Source of the DNA: Clostridia bacterium
Lineage (GTDB): Bacteria; Bacillota; Clostridia; TANB77; CAG-508
Assembly: GCA_022797215.1 (NCBI GenBank)
Contig: JAAWKD010000003.1
Coordinates: 6,986-70,985, forward strand
Reading direction: 5' to 3'
DNA length: 64,000 bases
Position 1 is the first letter of the stretch, and each line of letters starts with the position of its first letter. A program made the position numbers and the translations under genes. Under the pieces are notes generated by a model, which saw only the letters and a program-made list of their open reading frames with translations, was not told where the DNA came from and ran no database searches. This document shows positions 1,123 through 14,159 of this stretch, piece after piece.

Positions 1123-1542
1123 CTATGCTGCAAATAATGAAATTTGAGCAATTTCTTCTTTTTTTTCGGCTTGTTCATTTTCTACACTGTTTCCAAAAAT
1201 TGATCCAAACTCATCATCTTCATCTTTTATTTCAACTTTTTTAACATCTCCATGCTTGCTTTTTTCTAATTTATACTTCTTAATGCCTAATTCCTTATTT
1301 GATTTTATAAAGTATTCTTTGGCCCAACTATATACTGTTTCATCTTCTATTATTGCTACTCCATTAGTAGCTTCTTTTTTAGCTAAGCCATTTATATACT
1401 CTGCCATTTCTTTTAGTTCCTTTTCTTCTTTTAAGAAGTCTTGGTCCATATCTGTTTGTAGCATTAAGTAGCTAACAATTTTTATTAAACTTTTATCTTT
1501 TTGTCCCTTTATCATTTCAGATAATCTTTGTATTCCATTCAT
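1123..1542 (-). CDS. PcfK-like protein (family reported to include anti-CRISPR AcrIIA9)
   Basis: 139 aa. The IVSYLM...DFLKEEKELKEMAEYINGLAKKEA..GVAIIEDETVYSWAKEYF pattern is typical of the PcfK-like domain. Ends ..LFAA. Confidence 0.55.
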   Translation of the reverse strand: MNGIQRLSEMIKGQKDKSLIKIVSYLMLQTDMDQDFLKEEKELKEMAEYINGLAKKEATNGVAIIEDETVYSWAKEYFIKSNKELGIKKYKLEKSKHGDVKKVEIKDEDDEFGSIFGNSVENEQAEKKEEIAQISLFAA

Positions 1543-1568
1543 ATTGTACTCTCCTTTATTTTTTATAT

Positions 1569-3164
1569 TTATGCTGCTAATTGTAATAATTCTTTACTTT
1601 CCACAATAAAGTATTTTGTATTTGCCATAGTCTTTTGATAACTCTCTTTCCCTTCAAACTCATCTATAACAGATTTTTCTTCTGCTGTCATTTCATCATA
1701 TTTTATTTTTCCATATGTTGGTGGTAACCAACTTTTTCTTTGGCTTCCATAAATGTTAAACTTTTTCAATAAGTCTAAATTAGTAAATTCTATATGACAT
1801 GTCCCTTTCTTATAAAATGTTACATCAAAAAATTTCAAATGTATTTTCTTAGTTTGTCCTATATTTTCTGCTACTTTAAGAGCATTCTCTAATGAGATAT
1901 TTGCTGTTATGTTCCCATCTAAATAATTAAATACTTTTTCAACATCTAATAGTTTATTAGTTGCATTATAGCCATATTGTGGTTTACCACTATAACTACT
2001 AAAACCATCTAGTGGAATAATAACCTTCTTGTTTATAATCCATGCCTTATTAGTTTTCCATCCATTATAATAATGAATATTATTGCTTGTTTCATTATAC
2101 CAATGATATTTCTCGGAAAATTCTTCAAATAGACCTAATATAGTATCTTCTATTCCTTTTATTGTTTTATTTTGCATTTCACATCTTATCGTATATATAT
2201 TGTAGATTGAAAAGTCATACTCTTTTAATTCTTCTACTCTATTATAGTAATCAGTTCTTAAATTATTAGTTAGTCTTTTTATAAACTCTTTATTACTAAA
2301 TAGTGCTTTCCAATATTTTTTTCTTATTGCTTTTACAAAATCATTTATTGTTACTTCTTTCTTTTCCTTGTACTCATTTAAAATTAGCTTAAGCATAGCA
2401 GCCTCTTTATCATATTCTCCTTCAATCTCTTTTAATATAAATGGTTTTATGGCATTATGCTCATTGATTAGTTTTATTCCAGCCTCTAATTCCATATTAT
2501 ATCTATCGACTATTTGCTTTACAAAATCATCTTTTATTAAATCTGTATATTCTTTTTCTTGATATTCTTCTACTCTTTCTTCTTGTCTTAAATTGTTTAA
2601 AATAAAAGATTCTTTTTCCTGTGGTAAAATACATATTTTTACTAGAGCAATTTCAACATTTGTTTCATTTTCAGCATATACAAACGCATTTTCTAAAAAT
2701 TCAATTTTCGCTCCCAACTCGGTTAATTTTCTTTTCAAGTCCTTTCTAATATTACTATATGGATTTCTAATTGTCTCTGCATTTAATAAACATATAATTG
2801 CACCTCCATCTTTTTGCATTTCTATTGCTTTTAACAGATGTTGATCTCCACAAGAAAATGGCGGATTCATTATAATTAAATCATATTTCTTGTATGTATT
2901 AAAATTTAAGAAATCATTAAATACTACCTTATATTCTTTTCCTTTTAATAACAATCTTAAGTTTTCGTCTACTTCTATTGCATCTATGTCAAAATCTGGT
3001 TTATTGTACCTATAAGTATTTTCATACTTTTCTTTTATTGCATCAATAATATCTCCTTTTCCTGCTGATGGTTCTAATATATATTTTACCTTTTCTATAT
3101 CAATACTATCTAACATTTTTTGTACTAGCCATTTAGGCGTAGGATAAAATTCTTTATTAAACAC
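1569..3164 (-). CDS. N6-adenine DNA methyltransferase with DUF4942-like C-terminal region (orphan)
   Basis: Motif I is LEPSAGKGD and motif IV is IIMNPPF. 531 aa, GTG start. No restriction partner nearby. Confidence 0.8.
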   Translation of the reverse strand: MFNKEFYPTPKWLVQKMLDSIDIEKVKYILEPSAGKGDIIDAIKEKYENTYRYNKPDFDIDAIEVDENLRLLLKGKEYKVVFNDFLNFNTYKKYDLIIMNPPFSCGDQHLLKAIEMQKDGGAIICLLNAETIRNPYSNIRKDLKRKLTELGAKIEFLENAFVYAENETNVEIALVKICILPQEKESFILNNLRQEERVEEYQEKEYTDLIKDDFVKQIVDRYNMELEAGIKLINEHNAIKPFILKEIEGEYDKEAAMLKLILNEYKEKKEVTINDFVKAIRKKYWKALFSNKEFIKRLTNNLRTDYYNRVEELKEYDFSIYNIYTIRCEMQNKTIKGIEDTILGLFEEFSEKYHWYNETSNNIHYYNGWKTNKAWIINKKVIIPLDGFSSYSGKPQYGYNATNKLLDVEKVFNYLDGNITANISLENALKVAENIGQTKKIHLKFFDVTFYKKGTCHIEFTNLDLLKKFNIYGSQRKSWLPPTYGKIKYDEMTAEEKSVIDEFEGKESYQKTMANTKYFIVESKELLQLAA

Positions 3165-3185
3165 TCATTTCACCTCTTTTTTATC

Positions 3186-3214
3186 TAAAAAAAGATGGAT
3201 TTATCTTTCCATCT
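3186..3214 (-). terminator. Hairpin plus T-run directly after the stop of 3216..3614
   Basis: Minus strand reads AGATGGA-AAGATAAA-TCCATCT followed by TTTTTTT. Confidence 0.5.
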
Positions 3215-3215
3215 C

Positions 3216-11972: not shown

Positions 11973-11984
11973 TTTTTATCCTTT

Positions 11985-12620
11985 CTACCACTCAAAAAGT
12001 GGTCTATTTTTTAACTTTTTCATTTTAATATTTCTTTCTACAAAAAAAATATCTACTGCTTTATCGTTCTCAATAAATTCGTAGACTTTTATATCTGTTA
12101 GGTTATCTTCATTTAAAATGATATATTGAAATGGAATATCTTGCTTTCTAAATGATTTTACAGTCTCTTCTATTATTTGAATACTTTTATTACTCACTGG
12201 CCAAAAAACTGATTTCCACCCAACAGCAATATATTCTTTCTTTCCCTTCTTAAATTCTTTGTATATGCTTATTTTTCCTAACTTGTTATTACTAATTGGC
12301 TCATTTTCTTTCAAGTTTTTTTCTATCAATTCATATCCTTGCCTAGTAGTACATAATCTAACTTGATATTTTTTCACATTGTTTTTCTTGTCTTCAAATA
12401 CTCTTTGTATATCATTTTCTTTGAACCAATCTTTTTTGTCAAAAATTAGATCTATATAGTATTCATCATAGTAATAATCTTTTTCAATGATAAAACCTAA
12501 CTTTCCTTTTACTTTTCCGCAAATTTTTCCTATACCATTTACTTTCACTAACTCATCATAATTATATTTATTTCTCATTAGTTGCCTACTTACTTTATAA
12601 GTTCTTCTTTTAATGCACAA
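11985..12620 (-). CDS. hypothetical protein
   Basis: 211 aa ORF. The track start is TTG; the internal ATG at 12578 is an equally possible start. Confidence 0.5.
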   Translation of the reverse strand: MCIKRRTYKVSRQLMRNKYNYDELVKVNGIGKICGKVKGKLGFIIEKDYYYDEYYIDLIFDKKDWFKENDIQRVFEDKKNNVKKYQVRLCTTRQGYELIEKNLKENEPISNNKLGKISIYKEFKKGKKEYIAVGWKSVFWPVSNKSIQIIEETVKSFRKQDIPFQYIILNEDNLTDIKVYEFIENDKAVDIFFVERNIKMKKLKNRPLFEW

Positions 12621-12811
12621 TGAAAATTTTTTATAATTTCTCTTGTCTTTCCCTTGTTTTTATCAAAAAATTTGTATATACTTTTACTAATAAAAGCTAT
12701 AATATCTATAGTGATAAGTAATAAAATGATTAAGGATTTTTTTATTATTTTCAACATTTTAAATTTTCCTTTCTTTTTATTATTTCAATATTAAAAGCAG
12801 TGTAAGTTAAA

Positions 12812-13909
12812 TTATACTGCTTCTTTTAATTCATTATTAAAATCTATTAAAGTTCCATCTTCTTGTAGTATTTGCTTTATTTCATACTTACATATGATAT
12901 TTTTTCCAACTTGGATTTCTGACTTAAGTAGTTTTATCATAGTTCCTATTCCGCATTTTAAAATGTCCTGTGATGCTTTTGGATGTAGTATATATTCATT
13001 ATCTTGACTATTAATATCTTGTAGAATAATCTTTTTGAAATTCTTATTTTGTATTAAAATATCAGAAATTTCCACCACATAAAAAATATCCGAAAAATCT
13101 TCTTTTACTTGTTGTTCTTTATCTGTTTCTTTTGGTATTTCATTTGTTACTTGTTCTTTTTCCTTTTTAGGTTGTTCTACTTCCTTATTTTGCTTTTTGA
13201 TATTTTCTTTTTGTTTTGTTTCCGTTTCTGTTTCCTTTTTTCCTTCAGCAATTTGCTTAGTTGTTTCTACTGGAATATCACCTGAATTTAATGATGGTGT
13301 TACATTAGTTAATTGTGGCTTAATATCTGTCCTTCTCAAGTCTAAACTATAATATGTTCCATAAGCAATACTTTCTTGTGCATCTAATTTTAATTCAAAT
13401 GGAACATCTACTATGCTCATCCCTGCTTTTTTATACTTTACTATTTCTGATGCAATATTAGATAAAGATAAACCTCCAGTAGTTTTTATTAACCATACAC
13501 CACCTGCTTCAATTCCTTCTAACACAAATTTTAAACTTCCAACCAATTTACATTTTCCTGTTAGACGATGTTCACACTCTTTGCTACATTCAACTTCTAT
13601 TTGTTCATTATTTCCTTTTGCATTTTTCCCAATCGTAATGGCTTTTGTTCCATTTCCAATGCAAGCAATTTTATTATTAACATACCTTTTATACTTAAAA
13701 CTAAATGGATCTTCATCAACAAATCTTATTTTCAATATTTTAGGCTGTCCTGGATATAACTGCTTAAATATATCTACCATATCACTTGATGTTACTTTAT
13801 CTTCTTCTACATTAAAAAAAGGTAACTTTTTTGGAAGTCCCTTCTCGCTTTTAGTCCCTGTCTTTATATGAGCTATTACTTTATCTCTCACTAGGTTTTC
13901 TATTTGCAT
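12812..13909 (-). CDS. hypothetical protein with Cys cluster and KE-rich linker
   Basis: I place the start at MQIEN after RBS AAAGGAAAAAG. Contains ECSKECEHRLTGKCKL. No family recognised. Confidence 0.55.
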   Translation of the reverse strand: MQIENLVRDKVIAHIKTGTKSEKGLPKKLPFFNVEEDKVTSSDMVDIFKQLYPGQPKILKIRFVDEDPFSFKYKRYVNNKIACIGNGTKAITIGKNAKGNNEQIEVECSKECEHRLTGKCKLVGSLKFVLEGIEAGGVWLIKTTGGLSLSNIASEIVKYKKAGMSIVDVPFELKLDAQESIAYGTYYSLDLRRTDIKPQLTNVTPSLNSGDIPVETTKQIAEGKKETETETKQKENIKKQNKEVEQPKKEKEQVTNEIPKETDKEQQVKEDFSDIFYVVEISDILIQNKNFKKIILQDINSQDNEYILHPKASQDILKCGIGTMIKLLKSEIQVGKNIICKYEIKQILQEDGTLIDFNNELKEAV

Positions 13910-13925
13910 ATTTTCTTTTTCCTTT

Positions 13926-14159
13926 CTACGCAGCTCTTGCTTCATCTTCTATATCAGCTTCAAAATCTCTTAACTGCTTCATTATTTTTTCTTTTAATTC
14001 ATTATAGTCTTTCTCATTAATATATGAATACTCTGTTTCAAATTCATTTTTTTCTGGTTCAAGATTATTTATTTTAACATCATTGTTACATAGTAATTGT
14101 TCGAACTCATATATAATGTCCTTTGCTATTTGTTCTCTCCATGATTCACTAACTAGCAT
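13926..14159 (-). CDS. hypothetical small acidic protein
   Basis: 77 aa; the ATG overlaps the stop of the upstream gene. Confidence 0.5.
   Translation of the reverse strand: MLVSESWREQIAKDIIYEFEQLLCNNDVKINNLEPEKNEFETEYSYINEKDYNELKEKIMKQLRDFEADIEDEARAA

Follow-up and report, generated by a model that had tools for sequence, protein, structure and literature searches.

The DNA analyzed here is a 64,000-nucleotide stretch of a Clostridia bacterium genome (contig JAAWKD010000003.1, positions 6,986 to 70,985), referred to below as the window. From position 1 to ~50 kb all of its genes lie on the minus strand, at a GC content of ~26%. Between 1123 and 14529 this strand carries 22 closely spaced open reading frames (ORFs) of at least 50 amino acids. 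Further along the same strand are genes for a TraG/VirB4-type ATPase, a type IV secretion system (T4SS) pilin, an M23 peptidase, a sortase, a SpaA adhesin and a coupling-protein fragment, and beyond the T4SS genes lie host genes (CotJA/B, a dockerin protein, pyruvate kinase, a phosphorylase and transporters). As T4SS genes and then host genes follow on the same strand, the 22-ORF operon is part of an integrated conjugative element, the host of which is an AT-rich spore-forming member of the Clostridia. The subject of this report is the C-terminal end of the operon's proteins: 10 of the 22 terminate in Ala, and 6 of those in Ala-Ala.

These two numbers agree with the initial annotation of the sequence, which had counted 21 genes instead of 22. 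The terminal dipeptides are AA (six), VA (two), IA (one) and SA (one), with one additional protein ending in AV. Given an Ala content of 4.3% in these proteins, the binomial probability of observing at least 10 Ala ends among 22 is 8e-9, and that of at least 6 AA ends, given an AA dipeptide frequency of 0.2%, is 4e-12; the claim that Ala ends are far beyond chance was thus borne out. In the rest of the window, 2 of ~70 ORFs end in Ala (Fisher's P = 4e-6 versus the operon). These two genes, at 19300 (..QQA) and 21482 (..MWA), show that Ala ends are not strictly confined to the left module, as had been stated, but neither has Ala, Val or Ile at position -2. The stop codon directly follows the terminal Ala codon in all ten operon genes, and the string GCWGCATAR occurs at five minus-strand sites, each in frame at a gene end, and at one plus-strand site. 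The ten C-termini and DNA junctions listed previously were all recovered, all on the minus strand. The accompanying statement that the motif runs into the ribosome-binding site (RBS) of the next gene applies to six of the ten junctions and not to the others; the GAG after the gene at 3216 is part of a hairpin followed by a T run and not an RBS, and the GAGGA after the gene at 9149 is ~190 nt away from the next start. Two genes were not on that list: a Gp3-like gene ending in ..KEAV and a PcfJ-like gene at the left edge, the relatives of which end in VA or AA.

Eighty related loci were obtained by scanning one genome per species; 47 of these are from metagenome-assembled genomes of AT-rich gut Clostridia and have the same gene order. 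In these AT-rich loci, 285 of 894 unique operon-strand ORFs (32%) end in Ala, versus 2 of 218 opposite-strand ORFs. Ala ends are avoided by the opposite-strand neighbors despite an Ala content of 3.8% in both sets. In the 45 loci with at least eight operon-strand ORFs, between 14% and 53% of these ORFs are Ala-ended (median, 36%). When terminal dipeptides were compared in these homologous elements, as the initial annotation had suggested, AA (128 ORFs) and VA (97) were the commonest ends on the operon strand, followed by IA (23), SA (19) and AV (15), whereas none of the 218 opposite-strand ORFs ended in any of these dipeptides. At position -2 of the 285 Ala-ended ORFs, Ala (45%), Val (34%), Ile (8%) and Ser (7%) are encoded by mixed codons, and a charged residue was never found (0/285). 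Position -5 is rich in Leu and Phe (55% hydrophobic), position -4 is Lys or Arg in 37%, and position -3 is Lys or Arg in 31% and hydrophobic in 39%, with Leu at only 13% (family-weighted) and acidic residues at 9%. Read from -5, the consensus is a hydrophobic residue, Lys/Arg, Lys or a hydrophobic residue, Ala/Val/Ile (sometimes Ser), and Ala-COOH, with Ala-Val as a stable alternative ending.

At least 24 families that are unrelated to each other are mostly Ala-ended. The ending is invariant in AAA_23 (39/39), PcfJ (34/34), DUF3846 (26/26) and fam12 (26/26), as well as in fam27, fam39 and fam50; it is variable in PcfK (12/33) and fam5 (18/38), and it never occurs in SSB, the S6-like protein, fam15, fam16, fam19 and fam23. 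The tail is dispensable for protein function, as it has been gained and lost within PcfK and fam5 and is missing from a stand-alone DUF4942 homologue. Proteins of the AT-rich loci that need another C-terminus do not carry it, such as SSB with its ..DDLPF tip (0/40).

All window genes described in the following lie on the minus strand, with domain assignments from Pfam. The leftmost complete carrier (1123..1542; PcfK) encodes a PcfK/AcrIIA9-family-like protein that ends in ..AQISLFAA (..KEEIAQISLFAA), with tag codons at 1126-1131 and the stop codon at 1123-1125. The PcfK of pCF10 is annotated as a member of the AcrIIA9 family. The tailed PcfK relatives in the AT-rich loci end in AA or VA, and the others in ..EVKK and similar sequences. 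Immediately before their short variable tail, PcfK/AcrIIA9 proteins also retain a Q-[IL]-x-[LM]-F motif (..QISLFAA in the window, ..QISLF-stop in L001 at 14021-14434, and ..QIDLFECV in pCF10, L095, at 37207-37983), which is similar to the beta-clamp-binding pentapeptide QL[SD]LF. To the left of this gene lies the 5' part of the PcfJ-like gene (fam8; 2..1108; PcfJ), with its C-terminus beyond the window edge; the 34 relatives all end in VA or AA. On the other side, a DNA methyltransferase gene (1569..3164; DUF4942, MTS and Dam) ends in ..ELLQLAA. All four of its element relatives end in ..QLAA, ..QLSA or ..QLTA, and the stand-alone homologue from Pontibacillus (52% identity) ends in ..LLKITS, without Ala.

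The next gene encodes fam5, a 132-amino-acid protein of unknown function (3216..3614) that ends in ..YKTFKNVA (..MDNLYKTFKNVA); its Ala-ended relatives mostly have xVA. Right after the ..KNVA stop at 3216, the minus strand at 3160-3215 carries a hairpin (GATGGA-AAGATAAA-TCCATC) followed by seven T. This structure may terminate or attenuate transcription within the operon before the methyltransferase gene, which has a GTG start. A CHC2 zinc-finger primase-like gene (3621..4709, likely ATG start at 4703; Zn_ribbon_DnaG) ends in ..LEKNVA. Its relatives are Ala-ended in 36 of 46 cases in the AT-rich loci, and a Desulfoscipio relative ends in ..KQTA. The ArdC-like anti-restriction gene (4718..5563; ArdC-N plus an HExxH metallopeptidase) ends in ..IADNQAA (..EEQIKIADNQAA). 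Its homologues are Ala-ended in 117 of 120 cases, down to 45% identity, while the sequence upstream of the Ala drifts in both composition and length (..NQAA, ..RQVA, ..VKVA, ..EKISA, ..QRIGA); AS, AG and AV occur as other endings. In one ArdC subclade (L012, L015, L018, L020, L021, L026, L027 and L029; ends at ~10800), ..N[IM][RK]IA is followed by one extra residue (G, S, V or I), which looks as if the Ala end had been masked or retuned via a one-codon extension. An AlphaFold model of the ArdC-like protein, built from a 17-sequence alignment, was poor, with a mean predicted local distance difference test (pLDDT) score of 58.6 and a pLDDT of 44 over the last 11 residues.

Two further carriers of unknown function are fam13 (213 amino acids; 5951..6592), ending in ..MEKLMAA with Ala ends in 6 of 24 relatives, and fam43 (92 amino acids; 9149..9427), ending in ..EEIKLIA with VA or IA in 4 of 6 relatives. 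The gene for the SbcC/Rad50-like ATPase (AAA_23, fam2; 9752..11419) ends in ..EKSSLFIEQAA, and its five Alicyclobacillus relatives are Ala-ended as well (5/5). Its longest ORF starts at 11476, within the 3' end of the adjoining ERF gene, and the RBS-preceded ATG at 11419 is the likelier start. The Gp3-like gene has alternative starts at 13945 and 13909 in the same pattern. The ERF-family single-strand annealing protein (11436..11972; ERF) ends in ..FDLEQSA and is Ala-ended in 7 of 13 relatives. The Gp3-like protein, similar to recombination directionality factors (12812..13909; Gp3-like), ends in ..FNNELKEAV, an Ala-Val variant of the tail. As AV is kept by 114 of 120 homologues, it is counted as the eleventh member of the tail set; two homologues have AA, and a sister subfamily ends in ..K[KN]VAA. 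The last carrier, fam50 (77 amino acids, unknown function; 13926..14159), ends in ..EDEARAA with GCG as the terminal codon, and AA is found in five of five relatives.

Two untagged genes lie among these carriers. SSB (8547..8954; SSB) has the canonical ..DDLPF tip, and the ribosomal-protein-S6-like gene (9431..9739; Ribosomal_S6, 1e-18) has no Ala-ended relative in 34 AT-rich loci. The position of this S6-like gene, two genes upstream of the element's SSB gene, echoes the host rpsF-ssb arrangement. The SSBs of Alicyclobacillus loci (L063, 4520-4993; L067, 1311-1784) end in ..DDPFADSHSA and ..DDPFADSYSA, that is, in a canonical tip followed by a six-residue extension with a terminal Ala. The operon also contains a PAPS-reductase-like gene (7293-8051).

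Outside the operon, the coupling-protein-like ORF (27515-28243, minus strand; T4SS-DNA_transf) encodes 242 amino acids that cover profile positions 72-314 of 468, with small ORFs adjoining at 26999-27552 (minus strand). Given this fragmented-looking gene, the element may be decaying. The right element boundary probably lies near 43.5-44.3 kb, where an HTH_36 protein gene (43541-44215, minus strand) is followed by CotJA/CotJB-like, LPXTG protein and dockerin protein genes (43541-46034). Pfam and NCBIfam searches of those window ORFs that had no annotation recognized no relaxase, and no oriT was located. The module had no megablast match in phage and plasmid collections, and a scan of IMG/VR with AAA_23 alignment patterns yielded no confirmed relative. 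In a promoter and terminator scan of 1-16500, promoter-like sites were no commoner than in shuffled sequence, which left the operon start undefined.

The initial annotation had offered two readings of the recurrent junction: a conserved nucleotide cassette, GCWGCATAR-GGAGG, serving as a stop/RBS coupling unit or as a recombination linker for module shuffling, and a built-in degradation tag. The appeal of the cassette is evident in the window, where all five exact GCWGCATAR sites are at gene ends, six of ten junctions abut the next RBS, and the stop codon falls within an extended Shine-Dalgarno (SD) sequence in TAA-GGAGG and TAG-AAAGGA. Among homologues, however, the amino acid is kept while codon, stop and downstream sequence change. 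Terminal Ala codons are GCA (66%), GCT (26%), GCC (5%) and GCG (3.5%), compared with 57/36/5/3% for internal Ala codons. In AAA_23 the terminal codon is GCA in 18, GCT in 11 and GCC in 4 cases, and in PcfJ it is GCT in 15, GCA in 12 and GCC in 1, with a residue that is 100% Ala in both families. In relatives at 50-60% GC, the Ala is retained but encoded by GCC or GCG and followed by TGA stops, and the only nucleotides shared with the AT-rich loci are the GC of the first two Ala-codon positions; the preference for Ala, Val or Ile at -2 spans the unrelated codons GCN, GTN and ATH. The fixed spacing to a downstream RBS or start did not hold up either: just 16% of the Ala-ended genes in relatives have an SD-like sequence within 3 nt of their stop, three window cases have long spacers or a hairpin, and non-Ala junctions such as TGG TAG AAAGGA at 11985 are equally compact. 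The cassette is therefore rejected and, in our view, has next to no chance of being correct.

As the terminal residue is fixed while the Ala codon varies synonymously, selection acts on the protein and not on the DNA, and the comparison of homologous sequences argues that the motif is under purifying selection at the protein level. The window cassette is the AT-rich spelling of a peptide motif that is sometimes followed by the RBS of the next gene. Other nucleotide-level causes were also discarded. Extended anti-SD pairing (GCAUAAGGAGG) as the reason for GCA fails on the lack of conservation of codon and spacing, and ATGA start/stop overlaps that would force an A-ending codon apply to some high-GC cases only and do not select for Ala. 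Addition of the tail by trans-translation was dismissed because the ORFs themselves encode the Ala residues in frame, with an ordinary stop codon after them. An ARAGORN search of the window and all loci detected no tmRNA gene and only two tRNA-Leu genes.

The tail also occurs beyond the AT-rich loci. Alicyclobacillus relatives (~50% GC) retain ..QVA, ..MNA and ..VSA, with GCC codons and TGA stops, and Desulfoscipio relatives retain ..KVA and ..QTA. Among full-length AAA_23 representatives at 23-57% identity, 62 of 119 are Ala-ended. We compared loci in which this gene does or does not end in Ala. Of the former type are L082 (60% GC), which has a module of ThiF, DUF6094, Prok-E2_D, Rad52, AAA_23, primase and DUF6744 genes with 9 of 13 Ala-ended, L086 (52% GC, 6/11) and L091 (59% GC, 6/10), which have the same ThiF/Prok-E2_D/AAA_23 module, the short contig L085 (2/2) and the prophage L090 (5/33). 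The latter type comprises a C. botulinum plasmid (L081, 1/27), a phage-like module (L088, 1/7), a short contig (L087, 0/2), a contig with an FtsK/SpoIIIE-type translocase (L093, 0/9) and a locus in chromosomal context (L092, 0/3). With the query AAA_23 gene of each locus left out, 23 of 64 neighbors of Ala-ended AAA_23 genes are Ala-ended, versus 2 of 43 beside non-Ala AAA_23 genes (P = 1.3e-4). Controls had few Ala ends (Paenibacillus phage Fern, 3 of 68 genes; pCF10, 2 of 41), and the trait is absent from higher-GC Oscillospiraceae and Lachnospiraceae loci with ArdC homologues. The tail is a property of the element lineage and not of one protein family or of base composition.

In the metagenome contigs L082, L086 and L091 (52-60% GC), 55% to 70% of module genes are Ala-ended; the L082 module includes TnpV, and L091 has a sigma-70 factor ending in ..WGGAA. 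In L090, the early region of a prophage in CP124862.1 (36% GC), the AAA_23 protein ends in ..EDAA, Ala ends are mildly enriched, and four more genes end in Ala-Val (..KKAV, ..WRAV, ..KEAV and ..WAAV). Three other explanations of the trait were rejected. AT-richness as the cause is at odds with the AT-rich C. botulinum plasmid, which has a homologous module and only 1 Ala end in 27. A structural need intrinsic to the families is contradicted by the stand-alone DUF4942 homologue and the PcfJ and PcfK of pCF10, which do not have the tail. Reassignment of a stop codon was dismissed, as SSB terminates correctly at a TGA stop.

The explanation best supported by sequence logic is the second of the two original readings: an operon-wide, built-in ssrA-like degron for ClpXP that would keep establishment and anti-defense proteins transient. 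We assign this reading a probability of about 0.5. The motif is restricted to the element and is found on about a third to half of the DNA-processing, anti-restriction and establishment proteins of the operon, with the PcfK/AcrIIA9-like protein, PcfJ, ArdC, the primase, the DUF4942 methylase, ERF, AAA_23, Gp3-like, DUF3846 and several unknown proteins as carriers. It would mimic the ssrA tag, such that the pore of the host ClpX binds the terminal Ala-Ala or Val-Ala carboxylate and delivers the protein to ClpP. Short half-lives would then keep levels low in the quiescent element, and the proteins would vanish soon after the burst of expression that follows induction or arrival in a new cell. 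Recognition by ClpXP and this regulatory purpose are both inferred. The motif sits at the extreme C-terminus and matches the ssrA consensus. In an unbiased C-terminal pentapeptide screen in Escherichia coli, potent degrons were nearly all ssrA-like and ClpXP dependent. Of the 100 strongest tags in this screen, 91% terminated in Ala-Ala; FKLVA ranked first, and [LFYW]-[LAR]-L-A-A emerged as the consensus. Residues that were neutral or basic and hydrophobic were favored upstream, and YALAS had a weaker effect (PMC10862746). Natural tails in the elements studied here include LFKDVA, TFKNVA, RFKMVA, VLKGVA, ISLFAA and LLQLAA. Furthermore, Ala-Ala-COO- is the main recognition determinant in the ClpX-ssrA structure (PMC7652416), and SigmaAntA, with a terminal Ala-Ala shared by 67 of 71 orthologues, is a ClpXP substrate that an AA-to-DD change stabilizes (PMC7142297). 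Bacterial proteomes generally favor Lys and Arg at the C-terminus, highly expressed genes included (PMC7246954), and establishment and anti-restriction genes such as ardC require rapid yet transient action (PMC8708921). The AA/VA, AV and AS endings may represent graded degron strengths, and by analogy AV and AS/AG would be the weaker tags expected of the ssrA class. The Andersen tag series of 1998 (LAA, LVA, AAV and ASV) reportedly has a ranking consistent with AV and AS as weaker endings.

Several observations weigh against degradation. To our knowledge, none of the endings SA, IA, GA, NA and CA has been established as a ClpX tag. Position -3 is often Lys, Gln, Glu or Asn instead of Leu, and in E. 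coli 39% of AA-ended pentapeptides were weak degrons and bare AA was inactive (PMC10862746); many of the tails are therefore perhaps weak or nonfunctional as degrons. Degradation of a third to two thirds of operon products is also costly. Finally, the trait is found in conjugative modules and not in phage or phage-like ones (L088, 1/7; Fern, 3/68), nor in the C. botulinum plasmid (1/27). Such a conjugative-only pattern is not predicted by the logic that early proteins are unstable and fits a conjugation-specific function better.

One such function would be sorting, with the [A/V]-Ala end as a signal read by the type IV coupling protein or another element-encoded docking hub; ArdC, the primase, the annealing protein, the methylases and the anti-CRISPR-like PcfK would then accompany the DNA into the recipient or be collected at the transfer machinery. 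We consider this unlikely. It is consistent with a trait that follows conjugative-type modules, is absent from phage and phage-like modules with homologous genes, and extends across whole elements (23/64 versus 2/43 neighbors of AAA_23, P = 1.3e-4), and the T4SS structural and surface proteins of the window are without the tail. The enrichment of Lys and Arg at -3 and -4 recalls positively charged C-terminal T4SS signals, and Gram-negative systems transfer similar proteins (the primases Sog and TraC, and the ArdC-like domain of TraC1). However, no signal of this kind is known in Gram-positive T4SSs, and identity with a universal ClpXP degron would expose the carriers to degradation in the donor. 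In addition, pCF10 has PcfJ, PcfK, ArdC-like and VirD4-like genes and yet only 2 of 41 Ala ends, L093 has none in nine genes despite its FtsK/SpoIIIE-type translocase, and the coupling-protein ORF of the window appears fragmented. Scans of the window also revealed no relaxase, the canonical substrate on which the tail could be checked.

The remaining proposals place the function of the tail in translation or in protein conjugation. A P-site tRNA-Ala, or small uncharged last residues, might make termination more efficient or accurate and ease ribosome hand-over in a packed operon. A single tRNA-Ala may read all GCN codons in AT-rich Firmicutes, and synonymous variation is therefore compatible with a tRNA or nascent-chain effect. 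Modulation of termination by the last two residues has been described (Bjornsson 1996, in the account given by PMC7246954). TGA, the leakiest stop, is used by 3.5% of Ala-ended genes versus 14% of other operon-strand genes (L001-L049 and L055), and an SD-like sequence lies within 30 nt in 57% versus 37%. The pattern nevertheless follows families and not junctions, as SSB, S6-like, fam15, fam16, fam19 and fam23 are untagged at equally compact junctions and the genes at 3216, 9149 and 9752 keep the tail despite long spacers or hairpins downstream. GCx-TGA is freely used by high-GC relatives, and the preference for Lys and Arg at bacterial C-termini extends to highly expressed genes (PMC7246954), so that an effect on termination appears highly improbable. 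Even less credible is a ubiquitin-like conjugation system carried by the elements, in which tagged proteins would be substrates of E1/E2-type C-terminal activation. Ubiquitin-like proteins and the CD-NTases of cyclic-oligonucleotide-based antiphage signaling systems (CBASS) are activated at small C-terminal residues, and ThiF (E1) and Prok-E2_D adjoin tagged genes in the high-GC relatives with the strongest trait. However, Pfam detected no E1 or E2 in the window module or in ten scanned families of the AT-rich loci, ThiF itself is tailed in L086 and L091, and dozens of large enzymes are unlikely to serve as conjugated modifiers.

Individual regulators with an encoded ssrA-like degron have been described before, and literature searches gave no description of a two-residue tail shared by dozens of unrelated mobile-element proteins. 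We suggest, tentatively, an undescribed element-wide code, which would be either a conjugation-specific sorting signal or a degron "regulon" tying dozens of proteins to one host protease. Either way, conjugative elements of a broad class in the Firmicutes, with GC contents of 25% to 60%, would share one C-terminal address on their accessory proteins, and the two-residue signature would help to flag genes of this kind where a conjugative element of gut Firmicutes has not been annotated. Were the tails degrons, the levels of tailed proteins would rise and fall together with ClpXP capacity, and the case would be unusual in that a mobile element equips most of its establishment and anti-defense proteins with a uniform, host-read expiry signal. 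The AA, VA, AV and AS endings could then also provide graded degradation tags for AT-rich Clostridia. Such a signal would be a posttranslational answer to the short-pulse need of anti-restriction, anti-CRISPR and recombination functions, which has so far been explained transcriptionally (PMC8708921). If the tail instead directs export or docking, it could be the first substrate signal to be defined for a Gram-positive T4SS, as we are aware of none so far.

The reference system for comparison is the ssrA tag and the ClpX C-motif 1 class (..LAA-COOH; RseA(1-108), ..VAA; synthetic LAA, LVA, AAV and ASV). Like these, the tail sits at the extreme C-terminus, consists of Ala-Ala or Val-Ala with Ala-Val as an alternative, and is preceded by uncharged or basic, moderately hydrophobic residues; the F-K-x-V-A tails resemble FKLVA. 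Unlike the ssrA tag, it is encoded in frame by the gene and not added by trans-translation, only the last two residues are strictly held, -3 is often Lys, Gln, Glu or Asn, and SA, IA, GA and CA variants occur. In Caulobacter, CtrA is a single regulator with a genome-encoded C-terminal Ala-Ala degron. Streptomyces SigmaAntA is likewise a natural family that keeps a terminal Ala-Ala across orthologues (PMC7142297), but it is one regulator with a built-in ClpXP signal, while at least 24 unrelated families in one operon share the tail here. The C-terminal signals of T4SS substrates (the Arg-rich tails of VirB/D4 systems, and Dot/Icm) are similarly short, have basic residues nearby and are shared by unrelated proteins; they differ in that none is known to be defined by a terminal Ala, and pCF10 is without the trait. 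In gene content, the operon resembles the ardC regulons of pLS20 and p576 (PMC8708921) and the anti-defense islands of leading regions (PMC11541004), with ArdC, methyltransferases, SSB and small unknown proteins, and goes beyond these establishment gene sets in having an anti-CRISPR-family protein and a primase. The known control of establishment genes is transcriptional (the Reg repressor, EGeRS sequences and single-stranded DNA promoters), and a shared posttranslational tail has not been described for them; what they have in common with the operon is the need for a short pulse of activity (PMC8708921).

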